Shown here: positions 1-16,419 of the stretch, piece by piece
Layout: each line of letters begins with the position of its first letter
Numbering within the stretch: position 1 is the stretch's first letter
Sequence record: SRR31156797_535
Direction: 5' to 3' (one strand)
Length of the DNA: 22,833 nt
Notes under the pieces: generated by a model
What the model saw: only the letters and a program-made list of their open reading frames with translations
Told to the model about the DNA's origin: nothing
Database searches by the model: none
Made by a program: the position numbers and the translations under genes

Positions 1-529
1 TAACAGCCTCAATATCTATCCCATCCAGAGCAAAATGCAGAACCGGACTTCGCCCATCAACTTTAAATCCTTTTATAATCAAGTCTTTAAGACCAAGCTT
101 ACACCCTCTTTTAAAGGCGAGCATATCATCAGGTTCACCCTCATTTGCCCTGCTTTTTAGCCTGTGCCCATTTCTTATATCTTCTAACGCTTTATCGATT
201 CTGTAAGCTTCATCATTAAGAAAACTCTCTGCATGAAACCTGAGATGCTGCTCAAAGGCATTCCTTATACTAATGTCAGCTTTTACTATTATCTTCTCTA
301 TTTCATCGAACTCCTGCTCTTTGTACTCGATAAAGTCTCTGTCATCAACCTGATAGTATTTTCTTAAGAGAGCGAGCAGGAAATCATTATAGGTGTTCAT
401 CGTCACGGTCAGCATCTCTTCTATACGCAGGAGCGAAAGATATTTCTGTCTCTTTGGCTTTTCAAGACCGTAGACAAGATCACCTCTCCCCGCATCAATT
501 AGTGCTGTAAAGTCTTTGCCGTAGCACAT
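1..529 (-). CDS. Hypothetical protein, partial (continues beyond the left edge); possible toxin/effector-like domain
   Basis: Not in the ORF track. Manual translation from ATG at 529 is stop-free to base 1: MCYGKDFTALIDAGRGDLVYGLEKPKRQKYLSLLRIEE...DMLAFKRGCKLGLKDLIIKGFKVDGRSPVLHFALDGIDIEAV (about 176 aa). An SD-like GGGTGA overlaps the stop of the upstream 347-aa gene, 4 nt away. Confidence 0.8.
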   Translation of the reverse strand, partial: MCYGKDFTALIDAGRGDLVYGLEKPKRQKYLSLLRIEEMLTVTMNTYNDFLLALLRKYYQVDDRDFIEYKEQEFDEIEKIIVKADISIRNAFEQHLRFHAESFLNDEAYRIDKALEDIRNGHRLKSRANEGEPDDMLAFKRGCKLGLKDLIIKGFKVDGRSPVLHFALDGIDIEAV

Positions 530-533
530 TTCA

Positions 534-1577
534 TCACCCGTGTTTACATAGTATCTTATTAACATCTATTCCGTGGATACCAACCATAAATGAGCCGGGA
601 CCGTGGAAATGTATAAAGTCAGCCTCTATCTTTCTGAAATGAACATCCAGTGAGGATAATAAGCCAAGAGACACTTCGAACCTTTTAACCAAACTGCCAA
701 GACCTAGAATTTCGCAGGCAAAATCCAGTTTTAGAGCGTGCAAAGCCGGTTTGAGTGTTTTCATAGCGAGCTTCATCAGCTTATCAAAACCGGGGATGTG
801 AGATGTTGCGCTCAGCAGTTTTCGTATTTTAATCTTTATAGTATCAATAATCAGATGAATCTTAATGCTCTTATTCAACAGCTTATCGAGAAACTTAAGC
901 GGCGAGAGAATAAGCTCCAGCTCGTCATTAAGCTTAATTACATCCATCGAAACTTTTTTGATAAAGTGAAGCTCTTTTGTGAGAGCGCCTATTGATGTCA
1001 AAACTTCGTGCATTATCTTAATCATCGTGTGCAAAACCTTCATAGGTATTTCGATAACTGAGTTTATCAGCCCGCAGAATATATTAAGCGCAACTTCGTC
1101 AACTGTGCGATATATACTTTTATCAGCTGTGTTCAAGGATTTGTGCATACTTTTAAGCTTACACTCCTCCCCCTCTGTAAATGATTTCGCTTCATCAACC
1201 CAGCCCTGCGCTTTTTTAAGAAAACTTTTGACTGCTTTTAGCCGACCCCTGAAAGGCTTGATGCTCCTGTTTATCTCTGACACCTGAACATGCACCTGAT
1301 GAACAGGTATCCTGACATCATCAACTACACCCTTCGCCTCTGCCGCCTCCGCTGAAACTGGCGGGACGAGAATTGCACCTGTTAAAAGCTCTGAAATAAG
1401 CGTTAGCGTGTTGTCGTAAGTCCGAAGGTCTTTATCAAGGCGATCAGGAATCTCTAACAGCTCAATAACGTCACCAAGAAGGTGTTCGGTCTTTTTAATG
1501 TCAGCCTCCAGCTCACCAAAATCTCTGACAAGGACACCGTAATTATTTTCAAGGAGAGTTATCTGCCCCTCTGACAT
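534..1577 (-). CDS. Hypothetical alpha-helical/coiled-coil protein (347 aa)
   Basis: Long ORF whose ATG directly abuts the Sel1 gene stop (TAAATG). Leu/Ile/Lys-rich amphipathic helical pattern; no family recognised. Confidence 0.8.
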   Translation of the reverse strand: MSEGQITLLENNYGVLVRDFGELEADIKKTEHLLGDVIELLEIPDRLDKDLRTYDNTLTLISELLTGAILVPPVSAEAAEAKGVVDDVRIPVHQVHVQVSEINRSIKPFRGRLKAVKSFLKKAQGWVDEAKSFTEGEECKLKSMHKSLNTADKSIYRTVDEVALNIFCGLINSVIEIPMKVLHTMIKIMHEVLTSIGALTKELHFIKKVSMDVIKLNDELELILSPLKFLDKLLNKSIKIHLIIDTIKIKIRKLLSATSHIPGFDKLMKLAMKTLKPALHALKLDFACEILGLGSLVKRFEVSLGLLSSLDVHFRKIEADFIHFHGPGSFMVGIHGIDVNKILCKHG

Positions 1578-2264
1578 TTAGATAAGCTCCTTTGCGATCG
1601 TCTGAGCTTTTTTGAGGTCTCTGGCACTAAGTTTATAAGTGGTTTTGATACTGGCGATAACCTTCCTAGCCCTCTTATCACCGTTATTCCCAGCGCAAAT
1701 AGCCCATGCGAAACCGAGAACAGGGTCAGCCTTAGAAAGCCCCTGACCTGTACAGCATATCAGAGCGTAGTCAAGCTGGGCGTTAACAACTCCATCCATA
1801 GCTGAATCACTCATATATTCTGCCGCTTTATGAAAATCCCTGCTGATATTGACACCGCTGTAATACTCTTTTGCTGTCAGATATTTTGCTATGCGGTGTC
1901 CGCCGTCTGCCGCTTTTTCAAGCCACCTGACAGCCTCAGCTCTGTCTTTATCTGTCCCAACACCGTTAAAGTAACAAACCCCGACGTTATACATCGCCTG
2001 ATAGTGCCCTCTGTTTGCAGATTTAAACCACCAGAGGAACGACTCTTCATCATCTTTTGGGGCAGCAGAACCTTCGCTGTAAAATACTCCGAGAGTAAAC
2101 TGGCTTTCACAGTCGCCCATTTTCGCCGCTTTTAAGTAATGCTCAAAAGCAGAACCAGCATCACCTGAAAGTTCGCACTCTCTGGCGGTGTTAATAACGG
2201 TCTCTAGCTCTTCATCTGTAATACTCTTATTCAAATCAGAAACCTGTGCACCTGATAAAACCAC
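1578..2264 (-). CDS. Sel1-like repeat (SLR/TPR) protein
   Basis: Repeated Sel1 motifs: YLKAAKMGDCESQFTLGVFYSEG, WFKSANRGHYQAMYNVGVCYFNGVGTDKD, WLEKAADGGH. The start is either GTG 2264 (SD AGGGG) or TTG 2234. No clear signal peptide. Confidence 0.9.
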   Translation of the reverse strand: MVLSGAQVSDLNKSITDEELETVINTARECELSGDAGSAFEHYLKAAKMGDCESQFTLGVFYSEGSAAPKDDEESFLWWFKSANRGHYQAMYNVGVCYFNGVGTDKDRAEAVRWLEKAADGGHRIAKYLTAKEYYSGVNISRDFHKAAEYMSDSAMDGVVNAQLDYALICCTGQGLSKADPVLGFAWAICAGNNGDKRARKVIASIKTTYKLSARDLKKAQTIAKELI

Positions 2265-2320
2265 AACAACGCCCCTGCATATGCCAGCACAACTGCCAGC
2301 CCGGTAAGGCTAAGACTCAT
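2231..2320 (-). CDS. Putative small single-pass membrane protein (29 aa from ATG 2320; frame open back to 2425, 64 aa)
   Basis: Manual translation: (ISIKLILNDEDAAKLLSLDDIQVVDLDKKYEAKVV)MSLSLTGLAVVLAYAGALLWFYQVHRFLI*. It fills the gap between DUF2589 and Sel1, has TAAGGT before the ATG, and its TGA overlaps an in-frame TTG of the Sel1 gene (TTGA). Confidence 0.45.
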   Translation of the reverse strand: MSLSLTGLAVVLAYAGALLWFYQVHRFLI

Positions 2321-2421
2321 AACGACCTTAGCCTCATATTTTTTATCCAGATCAACTACTTGAATATCGTCTAAGCTTAATAACTTAGCCGCATCTTCAT
2401 CGTTTAAAATCAGCTTAATGC

Positions 2422-2991
2422 TTATTTACCTTTCGGTTTGATATCGATCGGCTCAACAGCACTCGCCAGAAGATCCATCATCTTCGCCATACCTTCCTGC
2501 GGCTGCTGCTGTCTCGCCACAACGCTTACATTGTATTTCGCTGTATTGTCTGTTGATCTTGTATTCTCTCTATGGCTTGCGACACTTCCTGATACTGACG
2601 CCTTAAAGGGACCCCATCCGCCGGATGCACTCGCCTTTGCGTCTTTATCCTCAGTCTCTTTCGACTGTGCTGACTGCTTTATCTCCATTGTAAAATCGAC
2701 ATTCACAGTCTCTATGAGAAGCGCTGGAATTGGAACCAAACCCAAAACAGGCGCCTGTATGTGAACTACTTCCGAGCCAATTGTCCCAGTGCCATCGTCA
2801 ACAGGTCTCTCGAGATCGAATGAAAGATTATTTGTAGTCCTCTTATCTCCTTCACCCAGAAAACCTATAGCTTCGATAAATTTCACCATTGTAAGAGCCA
2901 GCGCATACTGTGCCTTCGCAGCGGCATTAAGCGGCGCCCCGATAAGCTCCTCCATAGGTAATCCTCTGAACTGTTCTGCAACTCCTGCCAT
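2422..2991 (-). CDS. DUF2589-family protein (long-hairpin type)
   Basis: The N-terminus F.GLPMEELIGAPLNAAAKAQ..LA....FI..IGF, the internal PVLGLVPIPAL.I..V.VDFTMEI and the C-terminal TRSTDNTAKY.V.V.ARQQ..PEGM.K..D.L match my recollection of DUF2589. SD AGAGGA. Confidence 0.8.
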   Translation of the reverse strand: MAGVAEQFRGLPMEELIGAPLNAAAKAQYALALTMVKFIEAIGFLGEGDKRTTNNLSFDLERPVDDGTGTIGSEVVHIQAPVLGLVPIPALLIETVNVDFTMEIKQSAQSKETEDKDAKASASGGWGPFKASVSGSVASHRENTRSTDNTAKYNVSVVARQQQPQEGMAKMMDLLASAVEPIDIKPKGK

Positions 2992-3003
2992 AACTTCCTC
3001 CTA

Positions 3004-3447
3004 TTATGGGATATGTTTTAATATATGATCATTAACCTTAGCCAGCCCCTCAGGCGGCTCTGTCCCTTTCATTACTACTTTAACCTTTACCTTGCTCCCT
3101 TCTGCTTTCTTTTTAGCGGCTCCGCCGATACTCATCTGGAGCTGTTTATTCCTATCTTCACCTTCAAGGGATTCAAGTACCGCATCAAACTCTATCTCGA
3201 CCTGATCGAGCACCATTGATGTTTGAGGTACAAGGCTTATGAGAGGAACATCTATATCCACCTCCGGCTGACCTTCACTTTCATATGACGGGATTTTCAT
3301 TGTGACAGTTTTGGCAATACGCTTGCCGTCGACATCGTTAAAGAATCTTCTTATCAGAGAGAGGTGCTGTTCCTCTGCGAGCGAAGAGGCATGCATAACA
3401 GCATTAGTTAAGCCCTCTATTAAATCATCAAATTTGTGCGTAGACAT
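3004..3447 (-). CDS. DUF2589-family protein (short paralogue)
   Basis: Shares VPLISLVP...LD.VEIEF and the terminal PPEGLAKV.D motif with the neighbouring gene. SD GAGGG; first gene of the operon. Confidence 0.7.
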   Translation of the reverse strand: MSTHKFDDLIEGLTNAVMHASSLAEEQHLSLIRRFFNDVDGKRIAKTVTMKIPSYESEGQPEVDIDVPLISLVPQTSMVLDQVEIEFDAVLESLEGEDRNKQLQMSIGGAAKKKAEGSKVKVKVVMKGTEPPEGLAKVNDHILKHIP

Positions 3448-3564: not shown

Positions 3565-3599
3565 AAAAAAGCCGCACATCTGAAACAGACATACGGCTT
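3565..3599 (-). terminator. Rho-independent terminator of pta-ackA
   Basis: Minus strand AAGCCGTATGTCTG-TTT-CAGATGTGCGGCTT-TTTT: a 14-bp stem including G-U pairs, running into a U tract, just after the ackA stop. Confidence 0.85.
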
Positions 3600-3625
3600 A
3601 TATAAAATGAAACTCTTAAGAGTTA

Positions 3626-4876
3626 TTATTTAAGGAATGAGTATGGGTACTCAGTATGCGGCTTGTAGCTGTCGTTAAGGATCGCAACAACGTCCTCAAC
3701 AAAAACAAGCTCTTCGTTTGTAGGGATTACATACACTTTAACCTTAGAGTCAGGTGTAGAAATCTCTGTCTCGCCGTGCTTAGAGAATGTAGAAAGGTTT
3801 TTATCCTTGTCCACAACTATTCCCATCTGCTCAAGACCTTCGAGAGCCATCTGGCGTATAGCACCAGCATTCTCACCGACACCAGCAGTAAAGACTATAG
3901 CGTCAAGCCTGCCGAGTACAGCGTAGTAAGAGCCGATGTATTTACGAAGTCTGTAGGACTCAACATCTATAGCGAGTGTACATCTGTGTTTATAATCGCC
4001 GTCCTCACACATGAGAACGTCACGTCTGTCAGTATATTTACCTGTGAGACCGAGGATACCTGATTTCTTGTTAAGGATGTTATCCATAGTCTTAGCGTCG
4101 ATATCAAGCTGCTGCTGCATGAAAAGCGGAACAGCCGGATCGATATCACCGCATCTTGTTCCCATCACAGCACCTTCAAGCGGAGTAAGCCCCATAGATG
4201 TATCCACGGAGACACCATTCTTAATAGCTGTATGAGAAACACCATTACCTATATGCATTGTGATGATGTTACAGTCTTTTGCATCTTTACCGAGGAGAGC
4301 CGCAGCACGCTTTGAAACGTAAAGGTGGCTTGTTCCGTGGAAACCGTAACGTCTTACGCCGTGCTCTTCGTACCACTCGTAAGGTACTGGATACATATAA
4401 GCTTCCTCAGGCATTGTCTGATGGAAAGCTGTGTCGAAGATAGCAACGTGAGGGATGCTAGGCATAACCTTCTGAGCCGCTCTGATACCTGCGAGGTTTG
4501 GCGGGTTATGAAGCGGAGCGAGATGCTGAACATCTTCGATAGTTTTGATTACGTCTTCAGTGAGGAGTACGGAGCTTGCGAACTTGTCACCACCGTGTAC
4601 AACTCTGTGCCCTACAGCAGAGATTTTGTCCATGCTGTCGAGAACTTTGCAGTCGCCTGTTGTAAGAGTTCTAACGATAAGTGATACCGCAGTTGAGTGG
4701 TCGTGGCACTCGTACTCTTCTCTATGTGTGTCCATGCCGTCAGCTTCGTGGACGATAAATGAATCACCAATACCGATTCTCTCCACTACACCTTTAGCAA
4801 TAACTTTCTTGTTGTCCCAGTCGTAAAGCTGGTATTTAACTGAGGAGCTACCGCAGTTAAGAGCTAATATATCCAT
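3626..4876 (-). CDS. ackA: Acetate kinase
   Basis: Motifs LNCGSSSVK, GHRVVHGG, APLHNP, FDTAFH, RRYGFHGTSH, MGLTPLEG, FTAGVGEN, PTNEE. The start is corrected to ATG 4876 (MDILAL), which has a GGAGG SD. Confidence 0.97.
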   Translation of the reverse strand: MDILALNCGSSSVKYQLYDWDNKKVIAKGVVERIGIGDSFIVHEADGMDTHREEYECHDHSTAVSLIVRTLTTGDCKVLDSMDKISAVGHRVVHGGDKFASSVLLTEDVIKTIEDVQHLAPLHNPPNLAGIRAAQKVMPSIPHVAIFDTAFHQTMPEEAYMYPVPYEWYEEHGVRRYGFHGTSHLYVSKRAAALLGKDAKDCNIITMHIGNGVSHTAIKNGVSVDTSMGLTPLEGAVMGTRCGDIDPAVPLFMQQQLDIDAKTMDNILNKKSGILGLTGKYTDRRDVLMCEDGDYKHRCTLAIDVESYRLRKYIGSYYAVLGRLDAIVFTAGVGENAGAIRQMALEGLEQMGIVVDKDKNLSTFSKHGETEISTPDSKVKVYVIPTNEELVFVEDVVAILNDSYKPHTEYPYSFLK

Positions 4877-4889
4877 ATAAATCCTCCCC

Positions 4890-5879
4890 TTAGTCAGCCT
4901 GAACAGCAGTGATTGCCGCCACGTTGACGATGTCCATATACTTACAACCTCTTGAAAGGTCGTTAACAGGTTTAGCAAGACCCTGAATAACAGGACCTAT
5001 AGCCTCAGCACCAGCGATACGCTCTACAAGTTTGTAGCCGATGTTACCAGCGTCGAGAGTTGGGAATACCATTACGTTTGCTTTACCGGCAACGTCGCTT
5101 CCAGGAGCCTTCTTAGCACCAACAGCCTCAAGGAGTGCCGCATCAGCCTGAAGCTCACCATCGATAGCGAGGTTAGGATCGAGCTCTTTCGCAACCTTTA
5201 CAGCTTCGCGAACCTTAGTTACGTCATCGTGCTCAGCGGAACCCTTAGTAGAGAAGGAGAGCATAGCAACCTTCGGCTCAACCTCAAGGAAAGATTTACA
5301 GCTTGCAGCAGTTGCCACAGCGATCTCACCGAGAGTTTTAGCATCAGGGTTAGGGTTTACAGCGCAGTCAGCGAAAACTACAGCGCCATCAACACCAAAC
5401 TCAGGCTTGTCTGTTACCATTATGAAACAACTAGAAACTGTTCTCATACCTTTTTTAGTGCCTATAATGCGGATAGCCGCCCTGAGAACATCACCAGTTG
5501 TGTGGCAAGCACCAGTTACAGCACCGTCTGCGATACCTTTCTGAACAAGCATGGAGCCAAAGTAGAGAACATCTTTCATGCTCTCAGAAGCTTCTTCCAT
5601 TGTCATGCCCTTAGCTTTTCTCGCTTCGAAATATGTATTAGTAAAATCTTCGAGGTATTCACTGTTAGCAGGCTCGATGATCTTACATCTAACCTCATAA
5701 CCTTTAGATTCGAATGCTTTTTTGATCTCTGCCTCATTTCCAAGCAGAATAACGTTGCAAAGCCCGTTGTCAGCTATTGTGTTAGCCGCATCAATAGTTC
5801 TCTCGTCTTCGCCTTCAGGGAGAACAATAGTTTTATTTCTGGTCTTAGCTATGTCCCAGAATTTATCCATGAGTGACAT
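4890..5879 (-). CDS. pta: Phosphate acetyltransferase (short class I type)
   Basis: Motifs [66 protein letters not shown]; adjacent to ackA. Confidence 0.97.
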
Positions 5880-6116
5880 AATGCACCTCCAAATATTTAT
5901 CTCAGTCCATAAGTTTTACATGCTATCATAAAAAAACTCAATGAGAAAATAAAATTCGACCTTTTAAGTATGCTTTACCTTAAGCCCCTATTATAAATGG
6001 TTAAGAGGCATACCGTCTCAAGATATGAAAAGTGAAGTTCTTTTCCTTTATTGTTTTTATAACAACTTTCTACTTGTGTTTTACTTTTTTATAAATATTT
6101 CTAACCATAATGTTGA

Positions 6117-6145
6117 TTGAAAATAATCTATTTTAGATATAAAAT
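6117..6145 (+). promoter_or_regulatory. Candidate sigma70 promoter
   Basis: TTGAAA-17 nt-TAAAAT, with the palindrome ATCTA-TTT-TAGAT (6126-6138) in the spacer. The ATG follows at 6155. Confidence 0.5.
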
Positions 6146-6154
6146 GTCTTTTAT

Positions 6155-7531
6155 ATGAGTAGCCTAAAGTATAACTGTGAAACTAAAATACAGTCTGACG
6201 TACATACTGCTTTCGAGTGGCACGAGCGCGAAGGAGCCCTGCAAAGGCTTACACCGCCTTGGGAAAAGATCGAGCTGGTGGAGAAGAATGACGGTATCGA
6301 TGTAGGTGCGACATGCACTATTAACGTCGGTACAGGCTTCTTCAGCATACCCTGGCAGGCTGAGCATATCGAGTATTACAAAGACAAGCATTTTAAAGAC
6401 AGACAAAACTCCGGTCCCTTCTCTCTGTGGGAGCATTCTCATGACTTCGAAGAGGAGAACGGTGTTACAACTATAAAGGACTCAGTTGAGTATAAGCTAC
6501 CCCTTCATTCCATTTCAAAACACATTGCAGGTTTTGTTATAAAAAATAAACTCGACAAGATGTTTTCATACAGAAAGTCCGTCTCTAAACACGATATTGA
6601 GACCATAAAAAAGTACAACATACAGCCAAAAACTATTGTCGTTTCCGGTGCTACCGGTGTTGTCGGCTCATCTCTCATCCCATATCTTCAAACTCAGGGA
6701 CATAAGATCATCCGACTTGTACGAAATGAAAGACAGCTCTGCATTGGTGATGTCTGCTGGAATCCTAATGCTGAAATCATCGAAGACCAGTTTGAGGATG
6801 CCGATGTCGTAGTTCACCTAGCGGGCGAACCTATCGGAAACGAGAACTGGACAAACGAAAAGAAACTATCAATCGTAGACAGTAGAGTGCGTAGCACAAG
6901 CCTGCTTGCGAAAACTATAGCTAACATGAAAAATCCGCCAAAACTCCTCATATGCGCATCCGCCATAGGCTATTACGGTGACAGAGGCGATGAGGTTCTC
7001 ACCGAAGAGGACGAGACAGGGAAAGACTTTATCTCTCACGTCTGTTATCAGTGGGAAAAAGCGGCAAAAGCTGCTGAGGATAGGGGTATCAGAGTTGTCT
7101 ATCTGAGGATAGGCGTGGCACTCTCACCTGCGGGCGGAGCACTTGCAAAGACATATAAACCTACATCCTACGGGCTTGGAACCGTGATAGGCAGCGGAGA
7201 TCAACACCTTAGCTGGGTCGGGATGGACGATGTCCTCTATGCTATGACTCATATAATGGAGACAGAAAGCATATCCGGTGCTGTAAACTTGACCGCACCA
7301 AACCCTGTGCGGTGGAAAGAGTATTCTGATACACTTGCGTCTGTAATGAACAGACCAAGATTTTTGAAAGTACCAACATGGCTTATCAAGATGGTTTACG
7401 GTCAGATGGGGAAGGAAGTTCTCCTTTCAAGTGCCAACGTACAGCCGAAGAAGCTACTCGACAGCGGGTTTGAGTTTAAGTACCCAACCCTCGATTCTGC
7501 TCTCAAACATTTACTCGGGAGGAGCAAATGA
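6155..7531 (+). CDS. TIGR01777 (YfcH-like) NAD-dependent epimerase-family protein with an N-terminal SRPBCC/START-like domain
   Basis: N-terminal AFEWHEREGALQRLTPPW...GPFSLWEHSHDF...DSVEYKLP (SRPBCC-like); Rossmann VSGATGVVG; HLAGEPI, SRV.ST, ASAIGYYG, LRIGVALS..GGAL; C-terminal P.KLLDSGFEFKYP. Confidence 0.88.
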   Translation: MSSLKYNCETKIQSDVHTAFEWHEREGALQRLTPPWEKIELVEKNDGIDVGATCTINVGTGFFSIPWQAEHIEYYKDKHFKDRQNSGPFSLWEHSHDFEEENGVTTIKDSVEYKLPLHSISKHIAGFVIKNKLDKMFSYRKSVSKHDIETIKKYNIQPKTIVVSGATGVVGSSLIPYLQTQGHKIIRLVRNERQLCIGDVCWNPNAEIIEDQFEDADVVVHLAGEPIGNENWTNEKKLSIVDSRVRSTSLLAKTIANMKNPPKLLICASAIGYYGDRGDEVLTEEDETGKDFISHVCYQWEKAAKAAEDRGIRVVYLRIGVALSPAGGALAKTYKPTSYGLGTVIGSGDQHLSWVGMDDVLYAMTHIMETESISGAVNLTAPNPVRWKEYSDTLASVMNRPRFLKVPTWLIKMVYGQMGKEVLLSSANVQPKKLLDSGFEFKYPTLDSALKHLLGRSK

Positions 7532-9819: not shown

Positions 9820-12800
9820 ATGGCGATCATACTTTCACTAACCATGTTTGTGATTAGTAATAAATTTATACGCAGTACCTTTGAAAAAAAATCTGCTGAT
9901 ATCACCAAAATGAACTCAGACATCGCAAAAATGGTTCTCGATAAAAGAGCTGCCATCCTTAAAAACTCTAACCACGACATAGAGTTCCTCTTTGCAAGTA
10001 AAGCTGACACATTTCTAAGTGGTGACATAGCGACTTTTGAAAATGACATCATCTCACTATACGATTCATCATTTGCTAACGATGTTGATGTTTTCTTCTT
10101 CGAGTCAGCTAAGGGCGACTACATCTTCGATGCGAGCACACCTTTTTACGATACCAGTAAAATCAAAACATATATGACAGCAAACGGCAGATTTCTCAGA
10201 AACGGGATTAAGCTCATACAGTCTGAATCATCCAGCGGGATTCTCATCGCTCTCTCCGGTTCATCAGAAGTGATAAGCCCAACGACCGGCGAGCTAGCAG
10301 GTTATTTCTATACAGGGATAATTCTCAACAGCTCCGCAGGGCTTATAAGCGAAATCATTACATCAACAAACATCTCTGAGGCTGCAATCATCTACGGTGA
10401 CACAATCATCGCAGGGAATAACAGTAAGCCCACAGAAGACATAATAAACATCTGCTACAACAGCAAAGATGTAATTATCTCGAAAACTGAGGTAGCATAC
10501 TGCTCAGACATCCTTATCAGCCAAGAGGGGATTAACCTTAAATTTTATCAAAGCTTGCCTGACTCATTTATAGGGAATGTTATCAACCAGAACAAAAAGA
10601 TGGGATATATAGCTATCGCAATAGTTTCAATTATCACCATAATCGCCGGATATTTTATGAATCTGATCACGGTTAGGTCACTTTATCGTGTTATCGATTA
10701 TACTAAGCTGCTTCTTTCCGGTGAAAACACTGAGTATAAATATTCTCTTATATTCGAGTTTAATATGCTCGCCGACCGGATTGCCGGTGTGAGCGATGAC
10801 CTGACTGAAACTCAGGCTTATATGAAAAATCTGATCAATAACGCTCAGGCTCCTATAGCAATTTGGGATAAGAATGGCAATATCACGCTTTTCAACAACT
10901 CACTTGAAAAATTCTCAGGCTATGAAAGTGAACAGGTTCTCGGAAAGCATCTGAGCCACATCTACAGCATTTTCCCTTATGCAAATGTTTCAGTAGACAA
11001 GGCTGACCAGCATGAATCTACTGCGACACAATTCGAATCTGTTCTTATACATAAAACAAACGGTATGAAGAGTGTTATCCTGTGGAACCTCACTGATGTT
11101 TATAATGAAAGTGAATACTCAGGAACTATTCTGCAAGGTATCGACATTACTGAAATCAAGGCCGCAGAGGATAAAATGCTGCTCGCCTCAAAGGTTTTTG
11201 AAAATGCTCTGGACGGTATGGTTGTTATAAATGTTGCTGGTGATATTATCTCATGCAACGAATCATTCGCAAAGATGACAGGCTATTCCAAGCTTGAACT
11301 GCCGGGGAAGAATGCAAAAATTTTCAGACCGGATGATCACTCTCCAGATTTTTACAAGATTATGCTCGATCACCTTAAACACTACGGTAAATGGAGCGGT
11401 GAGGCCTGGCAGAGAAAGAAAAACGGCGAAACATTCCCTGCTATCATAACTATTTCAACAATCAGAAGCCCACGTGGTGAGGTGACTGACTATGTAACTG
11501 CCGTACACGATATTACTGAGCGTAAGAAATACGAAGACGATATAAAGTATCAGGCAACCCATGACATCCTTACAGGTATGCCAAACAGGCTCTATTTCAC
11601 TGAAACTCTAGCTAATTGCATCGATGATGATGTTGAGCACAAAGGTCTTAGTGTTATGTTTCTGGACCTTGACAGGTTTAAAAATCTCAACGACACACTA
11701 GGACACTCCACAGGTGACAGGATCCTTGAGATACTATCTGAAAGAATCAAAAATATCGTCCGCCCGACAACTATTGCAGCGAGATTCAGCGGTGATGAAT
11801 TCACTTTCCTCTTCACTGATATAAAGGACAAAGAAGATATACAGACCCGGGCTAATACGATAATCAGTAAAATATCCGAACCTTTGATTGTTCAGGGTTA
11901 CGAGCTTTTCATACAGATGAGCGCAGGTATCAGCTTCTACCCTAAAAATGGAAAAACAGCGTCAGAGCTGATAAAAAATGCTGAGATAGCTATGTTTCAG
12001 GCGAAATCAAAAGGTAGAAACAACGTTCAGTTCTTCTCAGATAATTTAGGCAACAAACTTCAGGAGAGGCTTGTCCTCGAATCAAAGCTCAACAGGGCAA
12101 TTGAGAACGATGAATTCACCCTTTATTATCAGCCTAAGATCGACCTTACAGACAATAAAATAATGGGTATGGAAGCACTCCTCAGATGGAAAAACCCTGA
12201 GCTTGGCTTCACCCCGCCGGATGTGTTCATACCTATCGCAGAAGAGAACGGACTCATACTTCCTATTGGCGAATGGGTTATGGAGAGAGCGCTCAAAGAC
12301 ACAGCGGAGCTTCACAGAATTGGTCATGATCAGCTAAAAGTTGCGATAAACCTATCGCTTCGTCAATTCATGAAAAAGGATCTTGCCAATTACATAAAAA
12401 TAACGAAAGAGAGTGCCGGCGTAGATAATATGAGCTTTGAGCTTGAAATCACAGAGAGCATCTTTACCGAAGACCTTAATACTATATCGAAGATAATGAC
12501 CAGCATCAGCGCACTTAACATTAAGTTCGCTATTGATGACTTCGGAACAGGATACAGCTCAATAGGTTATTTGAAAAAAATGCCTATCAACACCCTTAAG
12601 ATTGATAAAAGCTACATCGGAACCATGGATACCAATCAGGACAACGCCTCTATTGTAGCCTCGGTAATACTTATGGCGAAAAGCCTCGGGCTCGCTGTTG
12701 TGGCAGAAGGTGCTGAAACTGATTCACAAGTTAGTATACTCAAAGACTTAGGTTGTGATATAGTCCAAGGCTATTACTACGGCAGACCTATGCCTTACGA

Positions 12801-12843
12801 TGAGTTCCTTAATTTCCTAGAAACGTGGAACAAAGGAGAATAA
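9820..12843 (+). CDS. Membrane sensor: TM / LuxQ-like periplasmic domain / TM / HAMP-like linker / PAS / PAS / GGDEF / EAL (c-di-GMP turnover enzyme)
   Basis: Periplasmic TGELAGYFYTGIILNSS resembles the LuxQ sensor domain as I recall it. Second TM MGYIAIAIVSIITIIAGYFM; two PAS domains ending GIDITE and VHDITE; HDILTGMPNR, DLDRFKNLND.LGH, RFSGDEF; EALLRW, ELEITE, DDFGTGYSS, KIDKS, AEGAET, QGYY. The true start is probably upstream of 9820. Confidence 0.9.
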   Translation: MAIILSLTMFVISNKFIRSTFEKKSADITKMNSDIAKMVLDKRAAILKNSNHDIEFLFASKADTFLSGDIATFENDIISLYDSSFANDVDVFFFESAKGDYIFDASTPFYDTSKIKTYMTANGRFLRNGIKLIQSESSSGILIALSGSSEVISPTTGELAGYFYTGIILNSSAGLISEIITSTNISEAAIIYGDTIIAGNNSKPTEDIINICYNSKDVIISKTEVAYCSDILISQEGINLKFYQSLPDSFIGNVINQNKKMGYIAIAIVSIITIIAGYFMNLITVRSLYRVIDYTKLLLSGENTEYKYSLIFEFNMLADRIAGVSDDLTETQAYMKNLINNAQAPIAIWDKNGNITLFNNSLEKFSGYESEQVLGKHLSHIYSIFPYANVSVDKADQHESTATQFESVLIHKTNGMKSVILWNLTDVYNESEYSGTILQGIDITEIKAAEDKMLLASKVFENALDGMVVINVAGDIISCNESFAKMTGYSKLELPGKNAKIFRPDDHSPDFYKIMLDHLKHYGKWSGEAWQRKKNGETFPAIITISTIRSPRGEVTDYVTAVHDITERKKYEDDIKYQATHDILTGMPNRLYFTETLANCIDDDVEHKGLSVMFLDLDRFKNLNDTLGHSTGDRILEILSERIKNIVRPTTIAARFSGDEFTFLFTDIKDKEDIQTRANTIISKISEPLIVQGYELFIQMSAGISFYPKNGKTASELIKNAEIAMFQAKSKGRNNVQFFSDNLGNKLQERLVLESKLNRAIENDEFTLYYQPKIDLTDNKIMGMEALLRWKNPELGFTPPDVFIPIAEENGLILPIGEWVMERALKDTAELHRIGHDQLKVAINLSLRQFMKKDLANYIKITKESAGVDNMSFELEITESIFTEDLNTISKIMTSISALNIKFAIDDFGTGYSSIGYLKKMPINTLKIDKSYIGTMDTNQDNASIVASVILMAKSLGLAVVAEGAETDSQVSILKDLGCDIVQGYYYGRPMPYDEFLNFLETWNKGE

Positions 12844-15594: not shown

Positions 15595-16419
15595 ATGGAA
15601 GAACTAAAAGGCTTAATCGGAAGCTCAAACTCATGCCTTTTCCTCACAAGCGCAGGGATGAGTGCGGATTCAGGTATACCTACATTCAGAGACAGAGAGG
15701 GCTACTGGCGTAATTTCCCAATCTTTAAAGAGAAAGGGCTCCAGCCACAGGAGCTTGCATCACCACACTCTTTCAGAACTCAGGCGCACCATAGCTGGGC
15801 ATTTTACGAATGGCGCAGGCGCAACGCCAGAGAGAACACACCTCACCACGGATACGAAATTATCAACGATATGATAGAAAACTACTTTGAGCACGGATTC
15901 GTACATACGACAAACACAGACGGCTACCACCTCATCTCCGGTCTGGATAAAAGCAAGATTATGGAAGTCCACGGTTCCATGTGGCGGCTCCAATGCATGA
16001 ACGGTATGAGCTGTAGATATATGTATGAGGACAACGAAGAGGTTCCGCTCTGCGAACTCGACTATGAGAACATGTCCGCATCAGATATGCCATACTGCCC
16101 GGAGTGCTCATCACTTCTGCGACCTAACATATTAATGTTCGGCGACTGGGAATATGTCGATCATATGCATCATTACCATAACTATCAGGCATTCGTTCAG
16201 GACGTAAATGCCCCGGATATGATTTTCCTCATCGGCTCAAGCTCAGAGATACCTACCAACGACTACATAGCAAAATCTTTTCAGTCTCAAGGCTCAAAGG
16301 TAGTAACGATTAACCCTGACGAAGCCTCAACAAGAGTGTGCAGACCTGATATATTCCTTCAACAGGGTGCACTTGCGGCATTTGAGCTTATTGAGGATGT
16401 TCTCGGTTCTGTAAGGTAA
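15595..16419 (+). CDS. Sir2-family NAD-dependent protein deacylase (sirtuin)
   Basis: Motifs SAGMSADSGIPTFRD, TTNTDGYH, EVHGS, Zn ligands CMNGMSC and CPEC, LRPNILMFGD, IGSS, INP. Confidence 0.92.
   Translation: MEELKGLIGSSNSCLFLTSAGMSADSGIPTFRDREGYWRNFPIFKEKGLQPQELASPHSFRTQAHHSWAFYEWRRRNARENTPHHGYEIINDMIENYFEHGFVHTTNTDGYHLISGLDKSKIMEVHGSMWRLQCMNGMSCRYMYEDNEEVPLCELDYENMSASDMPYCPECSSLLRPNILMFGDWEYVDHMHHYHNYQAFVQDVNAPDMIFLIGSSSEIPTNDYIAKSFQSQGSKVVTINPDEASTRVCRPDIFLQQGALAAFELIEDVLGSVR

Follow-up and report, generated by a model that had tools for sequence, protein, structure and literature searches.

The 22,833-nucleotide (nt) stretch of DNA analysed here (sequence record SRR31156797_535; hereafter the window) carries at positions 1–3447 a cluster of five genes, all on the minus strand, that begins with two members of the DUF2589 family. 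The first, D1 (3004–3447, 147 residues, GAGGG upstream of the ATG), and the second, D2 (2422–2991, 189 residues, AGGAGG upstream of the ATG), both belong to Pfam PF11655. They are followed by a Sel1-repeat protein (1578–2264, 228 residues, GTG start, Pfam Sel1), by a helical protein that we call HEL (534–1577, 347 residues) and by an open reading frame (ORF), ORF5 (2–529), which is cut by the window end and represents the first 176 residues of a protein of about 236. The best-supported account of this cluster is a DUF2589 A/B cassette, that is a pairing of one paralogue without and one with a long amphipathic beta-hairpin, together with a lineage-specific downstream or effector set.

A first-pass annotation, made from the sequence alone, had described five closely spaced, co-oriented genes, and this layout holds. 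D1 and D2 are separated by 12 nt and D2 and Sel1 by 157 nt, while the TAA of Sel1 is followed immediately by the ATG of HEL (a gap of 0 nt), with AAGGAG upstream of that ATG. Because the 236-residue orthologue of ORF5 (P0121) begins at the matching residue, we place the start of ORF5 at the ATG at position 529, which gives a HEL/ORF5 gap of 4 nt and leaves about 60 C-terminal residues of ORF5 missing from the window. The terminator that was said to insulate the cluster from pta-ackA is likewise present: a 14-pair hairpin plus T run, resembling an intrinsic terminator (3569–3599, minus strand), lies directly after the ackA stop codon and separates the two gene groups. A terminator scan over 6.2 kb found no such site in the 157-nt gap; it returned six sites against 4.4 expected, so the weak terminator-like sites within genes are without meaning. 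The RNA fold of the D2–Sel1 spacer is unremarkable (z = −1.73). The same annotation had filled this spacer with a hidden ORF, and here only the gap itself stands. The frame in question (29 codons, hydrophobic, 2231–2320, minus strand) is probably not a gene. It shares 34 nt with the beginning of Sel1, and a comparable small hydrophobic frame behind the final DUF2589 gene was seen in one of 79 loci, the window itself, compared to four of 79 in a reverse-strand control; we therefore treat it as a chance frame and reject it as a conserved feature. The GTG start of Sel1 is backed by N-terminal alignment with the Sel1 orthologues of two other loci (L001 and L002, see below).

The DnaK encoded in the window shows 91% identity to the Denitrovibrio acetiphilus protein and 97% to that of the genome with the closest relatives of the window D2, HEL and ORF5 (the sister genome). 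Since the window also encodes pta-ackA, hrcA-grpE-dnaK-dnaJ and ordinary metabolic genes, the host is, judging by these sequences, an environmental Deferribacterota bacterium related to Denitrovibrio, with the cluster on its chromosome. Identity to the sister genome is as high for D2 (97%) as for DnaK, and falls to 82% for HEL and 70% for ORF5, with the downstream genes diverging much faster than the core. In the sister genome these four relatives may lie on a single contig. An exact look-up of the window proteins in the protein collection gave no match.

D1 and D2 score 101.6 and 156.5 bits against PF11655 (gathering cutoff 23 bits), each over nearly the whole model, and the profiles of the two families align over their whole length with 98.4% probability in a profile–profile comparison. 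The two proteins are paralogues that have diverged, and nearly everywhere the one is accompanied by the other. D1 is of the A type, without the long amphipathic hairpin, and D2 of the B type, which carries a conserved amphipathic beta-hairpin around residues 106–147. Hydropathy predicts neither a signal peptide nor a transmembrane helix in D1 or D2, and the only hydrophobic stretch of D2 (residues 75–93) is proline-rich and modelled as a strand and loop. Column analysis of a 109-sequence alignment of D2 picks out a conserved, hydrophobic, proline-rich segment at 81–94 (PxLGLVPIPALLIE), two stretches (116–124 and 129–137) in which Ala, Val or Gly alternates with Ser, Lys or Glu, a Gly/Trp/Phe hairpin tip at 125–128 and a near-invariant motif, ENTRSTDxTAKY, at 142–153. 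The AlphaFold2 monomer model of D2 (mean predicted local distance difference test, pLDDT, 68.7) has a helix at either terminus and four strands; residues 106–146 stay unmodelled in it. The D2 profile found nothing below E 0.1 among PDB sequences, and in BFVD the model retrieved phage DUF2589 homologues only. NCBIfam, PADLOC and PHROGs gave no informative match for D1, D2, HEL or the window piece of ORF5. In the full-text literature DUF2589 receives passing mentions only, in expression tables or in the text of two papers, and PF11655 none, in line with the first-pass view that the family is unstudied; an explanation of it is offered neither by the literature nor by a solved structure, a Pfam description or a defence-system model.

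We surveyed the neighbourhoods of DUF2589 genes in bacteria and viruses. D2 relatives number 236 at E ≤ 0.001 among 437 scored candidates. The bacterial survey covers the best 80 of 164 relatives, with one genome scanned per species, and amounts to 81 loci with the window; the viral survey covers the best 80 (L081–L160) of the 333 viral stretches that encode DUF2589 relatives. Locus genes are our own simple ORF calls, which may err in start positions and in some of the small genes, and pairs were detected on these calls with two profiles. At least two adjacent DUF2589 genes were found in 78 of the 81 bacterial loci, from Pseudomonadota, Bacteroidota, Spirochaetota, Bacillota and other phyla. 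The order is D1-D2 in 54 loci, D1-D2-D2 in 13, D2-D1 in six and another multiple in five; three loci have D2 only. Among the viral loci 79 of 80 contain the pair, 67 as D2-D1 and 12 as D1-D2. The window has adjacent hairpin-less and hairpin-bearing paralogues on one strand in the order D1-D2, scoring far above the family cutoff, and in this it is like the A/B pairs of bacteria and phages; it differs from them in its set of Sel1, HEL and EspK/GogB-like ORF, which is unique to the lineage. Phage cassettes differ further in carrying a 67-residue zinc-ribbon partner that the window lacks. This ORF (CPxC ... CPxC; for example L110:6420-6620) adjoins the pair in most viral loci and forms a cluster of 57 members in the 80 loci, without a Pfam family. 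Other viral clusters near the pair have representatives from GH19, Endonuclease_NS, patatin and ligases.

A Pfam scan of the co-oriented ORFs downstream of the pair, up to two per locus, covered 105 ORFs, of which 21 fall into toxin or hydrolase families, 16 into other families and 68 into none. Among the 21 are Amidase_3, Peptidase_M15_3, OTT_1508 and dCMP-type deaminases, an adenosine deaminase, Endonuclea_NS_2, three Exo_endo_phos, two weak GIY-YIG matches, two astacin-like proteins, one ACTMAP-like peptidase, five DUF261 proteins, CotH and a protein with EAD7 and FGE-sulfatase domains. By a simple hydropathy heuristic, an obvious signal-like N-terminus is present in two of these 21 (the adenosine deaminase and CotH), whereas in the others the domain begins at once. 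The other families include two Sel1 proteins, LemA/DUF3137 and probable bystanders (MerR, YidC and NIF3, for example). In a maximum likelihood tree of 81 D2 sequences, close relatives have different neighbours. The sister D2s of L022 and L028 (support 98/93, branches of 0.08 and 0.09) are followed by a deaminase and an endonuclease, respectively, and a supported clade of four combines a neighbour of unknown family (L030), an M15_3 peptidase (L056) and Exo_endo_phos (L038 and L042). In bacteria, then, even closely related loci differ in the gene that comes next after the pair, and this gene often encodes a small nuclease, deaminase, peptidase or cell-wall hydrolase that lacks an obvious export signal. 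L038 and L042, a Bacillota and an Actinomycetota metagenome-assembled genome (MAG), have near-identical D1-D2-Exo_endo_phos cassettes; since both nest in a Bacteroidota D2 clade, recent transfer or mis-binning is to be suspected. Upstream, where 118 of 134 ORFs were scanned against Pfam (near-duplicate loci being left out), we found five integrases, four resolvases, MobA, Abi_2, two AAA_13 proteins, HipA and a Schlafen-type protein; GH19 occurs upstream of the pair or in phages. What the survey shows is a core that is conserved and a downstream set that can be swapped and is often toxin-like, in surroundings of a mobile or defence type; a conserved core with variable downstream genes is the pattern that the first-pass annotation had proposed to look for. 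The link of DUF2589 pairs to R-body genes mentioned in that annotation was not seen, with no Reb family among the 105 downstream ORFs, the 118 upstream ORFs or the window proteins, and the R-body system is rejected as a model for the cluster.

ORF5 has a single close relative, P0121, of 236 residues and 70% identity, which we used as the query. By tblastn it matched 71 plasmid records. Among the matches are EspK in its C-terminal half (E 1e-8), a 331-residue Salmonella plasmid protein whose gene adjoins one for a phosphothreonine-lyase type III effector (E 5e-12), the last ~220 residues of a 924-residue Rhs protein from a Burkholderia savannae plasmid (L161; E 3e-5) and stand-alone proteins in Serratia and Enterobacter; the match to gogB of Gifsy-1 is weak (E 0.08). 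Those to EspK, the Salmonella protein and the Rhs protein span 93–98% of P0121 at about 26% identity. Common to the alignment are the motifs GD(L/I)xYGL, CKxGL, HFxxD and ITxSELRxxYR; the window piece stops short of the last of these but includes the other three. Residues 156–235 of P0121 match the NCBIfam EspK/GogB models (E 8e-13, 47.8 bits), to which the window piece itself gives no hit, and P0121 found nothing below E 0.1 among PDB sequences. As the full-length cutoffs of these models are 872–1049 bits (977 for the one compared with the 47.8 bits of P0121), and a protein of only ~236 residues has no room for the leucine-rich repeat (LRR) part, we rejected ORF5 as a full-length member of the EspK/GogB family; as a free-standing protein without Rhs repeats it was rejected as an Rhs or polymorphic toxin C-terminus too.

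From the matches to EspK, Salmonella and Rhs proteins, we class ORF5 as a stand-alone copy of an effector or toxin domain that is mobile. This agrees with the payload role assigned to it by the first-pass annotation; the label 'enzyme-like' was not borne out, no enzyme family being matched and the effector domain being the only one found. To our knowledge, the C-terminal domain of EspK and GogB has been known from effectors of enteric pathogens only, without described biochemistry. ORF5 shares that domain and its motifs with these type III effectors, and differs from them in lacking the LRR part and in belonging to an environmental Deferribacterota bacterium rather than to enteric E. coli or Salmonella. 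With the Burkholderia Rhs toxin it has in common the domain that forms the C-terminal end there, but not the Rhs repeats. In two reports, EspK is described as an effector that is translocated and promotes persistence in calves (PMC8565820) and GogB's C-terminal portion as the active fragment in host cells (PMC3386239). A Salmonella Milwaukee plasmid (L163) carries, by sequence match, three paralogues of the ORF5/EspK C-terminal domain within 5 kb (1354–2425, 3592–4696 and 5336–6380), all annotated as hypothetical and neighbouring a phosphothreonine-lyase type III effector gene.

The Sel1-repeat protein scores 105.8 bits against PF08238 (cutoff 30.7) in three stretches and so resembles described Sel1-like proteins, in having three or more repeats well above the cutoff. 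It differs from these in lacking a signal peptide, from which we take it to be cytoplasmic; any role for it, be it as adaptor, in immunity or otherwise, is putative. A Sel1 gene follows the pair only in the window, in L001 (Kistimonas) and in L002 (a gammaproteobacterial MAG). The three proteins are 29–33% identical, all without a signal peptide, and L001 and L002 also hold the nearest D2 relatives of the window, with modest support for the trio (84/92). The order of pair, adaptor, helical protein and enzyme, in which the first-pass annotation had seen a structural pair with chaperone and cargo, is therefore not a recurrent one, Sel1 being confined to these loci.

HEL has no family in Pfam, NCBIfam or PADLOC. 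Among 1.84 billion representative sequences its family comprises 41 proteins at E ≤ 0.001, nearly all of 335–370 residues, and it is on this evidence a rare but real new family; one relative was traced by cluster look-up to a Rhodothermaceae MAG, and scans of metagenomes and viruses for gene context returned no relative. The confident model of HEL (pLDDT 92.8, predicted template modelling score 0.83) is an elongated helical bundle with two helices of ~80 residues: helices span residues 5–40, 42–68, 72–150 and 155–234, followed by a small beta-hairpin (237–250) and further helices. Against PDB, Foldseek gave no match at E ≤ 0.001 and the sequence search nothing below E 0.1. The best VIA row is SPECT1 (Z 11.3, root-mean-square deviation 6.0 over 153 aligned residues), followed by many unrelated bundles, and for a modelled helical bundle we consider this match to fall below a meaningful level. 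There is no ClyA-type pore-forming toxin chain among the structural rows listed for HEL, and the Atlas search gave low scores only (0.83 or less). The HEL profile weakly matches ORFs near 6720–6770 (plus strand) in two viral loci, L148 (E 3e-4) and L158 (E 6e-4), ~1.2 kb downstream of the pair. These E values come from a six-frame search of a small database, and the matches may reflect coiled-coil noise or else a remote relationship.

As to what such a cassette might do, we tentatively propose, at somewhat less than even confidence, that it is a two-component membrane-breaching module serving exchangeable effectors. D1 and D2 would assemble from the cytoplasm into a hetero-oligomer, the D2 hairpins would insert into the membrane and breach it in the manner of a holin or a bicomponent toxin, and the breach would release or activate the neighbouring effectors, either to attack competitors or to kill the cell on infection. 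In the window, Sel1 would be an adaptor or an immunity-type binder, ORF5 the effector, and HEL its partner as a chaperone, immunity protein or membrane-active helper. The near-universal pairing, the residue alternation in D2, the swapped toxin-like neighbours and the mobile or defence surroundings all support such a module, as do the effector-like ORF5, the 0- and 4-nt gaps, the terminator-free 157-nt gap and the faster divergence of the downstream genes.

Several results weigh against this proposal. The pore is shown by no experiment, solved assembly or predicted assembly; the D2 model has no match in PDB at Foldseek E ≤ 0.001, pore-forming toxins included, and a wide VIA comparison with 48,161 chains gave no row at Z ≥ 5, the rows listed covering the first helix only. 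As its face is mostly Ala, Val and Gly, the D2 hairpin is only mildly hydrophobic, and the invariant polar ENTRSTDxTAKY motif is not accounted for by a pore model. Of the 105 downstream ORFs, 68 have no family and the 16 ordinary genes may be mere neighbours. In the window, a single transcript across the 157-nt gap is a prediction from the sequence, and the piece of ORF5 that is present lacks the most conserved C-terminal motif and by itself reaches only E 0.37 against the effector loci. HEL and ORF5 were found beside no other DUF2589 pair in the 160 other loci, apart from the weak L148/L158 matches of HEL, and by hhalign the HEL profile is unrelated to five long downstream ORFs of other loci. 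The interpretation offered by that annotation as a whole is thus partly supported; its filament, pore or chaperone roles found no structural support in fold searches of the D2 and HEL models.

We compared the proposed membrane-breaching module with known systems, in two cases for likeness of working only. Holin-endolysin cassettes and type 10 secretion also place a module beside enzymes that must cross the inner membrane, here from a cytoplasmic module next to enzymes without an obvious export signal (Amidase_3 and Peptidase_M15_3 downstream, GH19 upstream or in phages), and DUF2589, like holins, is frequent in phages. However, holins are small proteins with one to four transmembrane helices; D1 and D2 have no helix-like hydrophobic span and were rejected as holins, most DUF2589 partners are not wall hydrolases, and the window has no wall hydrolase at all. 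Bicomponent and aerolysin-type beta-barrel toxins likewise consist of two related subunits, and the Ser/Thr-rich D2 hairpin, with its alternating small hydrophobic residues and aromatic/Gly tip, presumably resembles the stems of such toxins. D1 and D2 differ from them in the lack of a fold or sequence match and of a secretion signal, and would act from inside the cell; the fold check for D2 was made with the pLDDT 68.7 model without its hairpin. The DUF2589 module appears unlike any described system, and the mechanism is put forward as a proposal. Whether the pair amounts to a new class of two-component beta-hairpin machine, breaching membranes from the cytoplasmic side as a general device for effector release or delivery, is more doubtful, and we hold this broader claim to be possible but on the unlikely side; on that reading the effectors, in the window with a stand-alone EspK/GogB-type domain among them, would lack export signals of their own and the device would be common to many bacterial phyla and large phages.

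Being found beside DUF2589 nowhere else, HEL and ORF5 may form a separate adjacent module, and the cluster may then consist of two or three unrelated neighbours, namely D1-D2, perhaps with Sel1, and an independently inserted effector with its partner. On plasmids of enterobacteria and Burkholderia, ORF5-type proteins occur alone or joined to an LRR or Rhs part, and no DUF2589 gene is annotated nearby, the 157-nt spacer could hold a promoter, and the uneven identity to the sister genome would suit an independent insertion. This alternative is nevertheless an unlikely one in our estimate. It has to account for five genes on one strand, for gaps of 0 and 4 nt and for the lack of a terminator in the D2–Sel1 spacer, and other genomes as a rule have a variable toxin-like set after the pair, so that a set unique to the window is what a cassette with exchangeable downstream genes predicts.

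An abortive-infection module, in which the pair would be a membrane-disrupting executioner and a neighbour the sensor or second effector, acting within the producer upon phage attack, accounts for other parts of the survey. Integrases, resolvases and Abi_2, AAA_13, HipA and Schlafen-type neighbours are typical of defence islands, and one downstream neighbour has the effector-associated domain EAD7. Nucleases and deaminases are common defence effectors, and both are found beside the pair. Relatives are however frequent on viral contigs (the 333 stretches above), and wall hydrolases without an obvious export signal and an EspK/GogB-type domain would be unusual for defence. In PADLOC-DB 2.0, no model matches D1, D2 or ORF5, and the hits of Sel1 (E 0.0095) and HEL (E 0.0024) are at noise level. 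We rejected the cluster as a described anti-phage system, and consider an abortive-infection role quite improbable. Least probable of all, and a remote prospect in our view, is a non-membrane polymer in which D1 and D2 would form a tail-tube-like tube, sheet or shell through inter-subunit sheets of hairpins and scaffold or package enzymes: two conserved paralogues that are always together, a fold of helix, sheet and long hairpin, the lack of a transmembrane segment, a D2 as conserved as DnaK and a wide distribution in large phages would all suit it, but the D2 model, of middling quality, matches no tail-tube, Hcp, capsid or shell fold (Foldseek E ≤ 0.001, VIA Z ≥ 5), and particle or tube genes do not recur beside the pair in the downstream, viral or upstream scans.

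If the membrane-breaching module is real, it would represent a way of releasing proteins or killing cells that has not been described, and offer a first clue to function for a large DUF family, while the EspK/GogB C-terminal domain would be an ancient mobile toxin module, found here in a free-living anaerobe. The survey in addition gives a list of unannotated candidate effector families adjoining the pair. An ORF of ~90 residues (cluster c5, ten members, no Pfam family; for example L043:1486-1761) stands directly after D2 in L040, L041, L043, L050, L052, L058, L062–L064 and L068, mostly Proteobacteria plus one Fusobacteriaceae MAG, and is sometimes followed by a 102-residue ORF (cluster c13) resembling a short third paralogue. 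In Bacteroidales a family of 200–250 residues (cluster c3, ten members, no Pfam family), with FSGC...(V/A)(C/A)HI motifs, adjoins the pair (L014:8560-9258, L018, L021, L030, L035 and L070), and may be a Cys-His hydrolase. Treponema loci (L011, L015, L026, L027, L029, L045, L055, L060 and L075) have the triple D1-D2-D2, mostly followed by a DUF261 protein and a signal-peptide-bearing membrane protein weakly like the ectodomains of ligand-gated channels (E 0.0059), and in several of them an integrase lies upstream.

Away from the cluster, the window encodes a 1007-residue signalling protein with LuxQ-periplasmic, PAS, GGDEF and EAL domains (9820–12843, plus strand) and a stand-alone SIR2-family protein (15595–16419, plus strand). 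The ackA ORF as listed (3626–4978, minus strand) has a TTG start that overlaps the end of pta; since the Pfam match begins after an internal MDILALNCG, its true start is probably the ATG near 4879.

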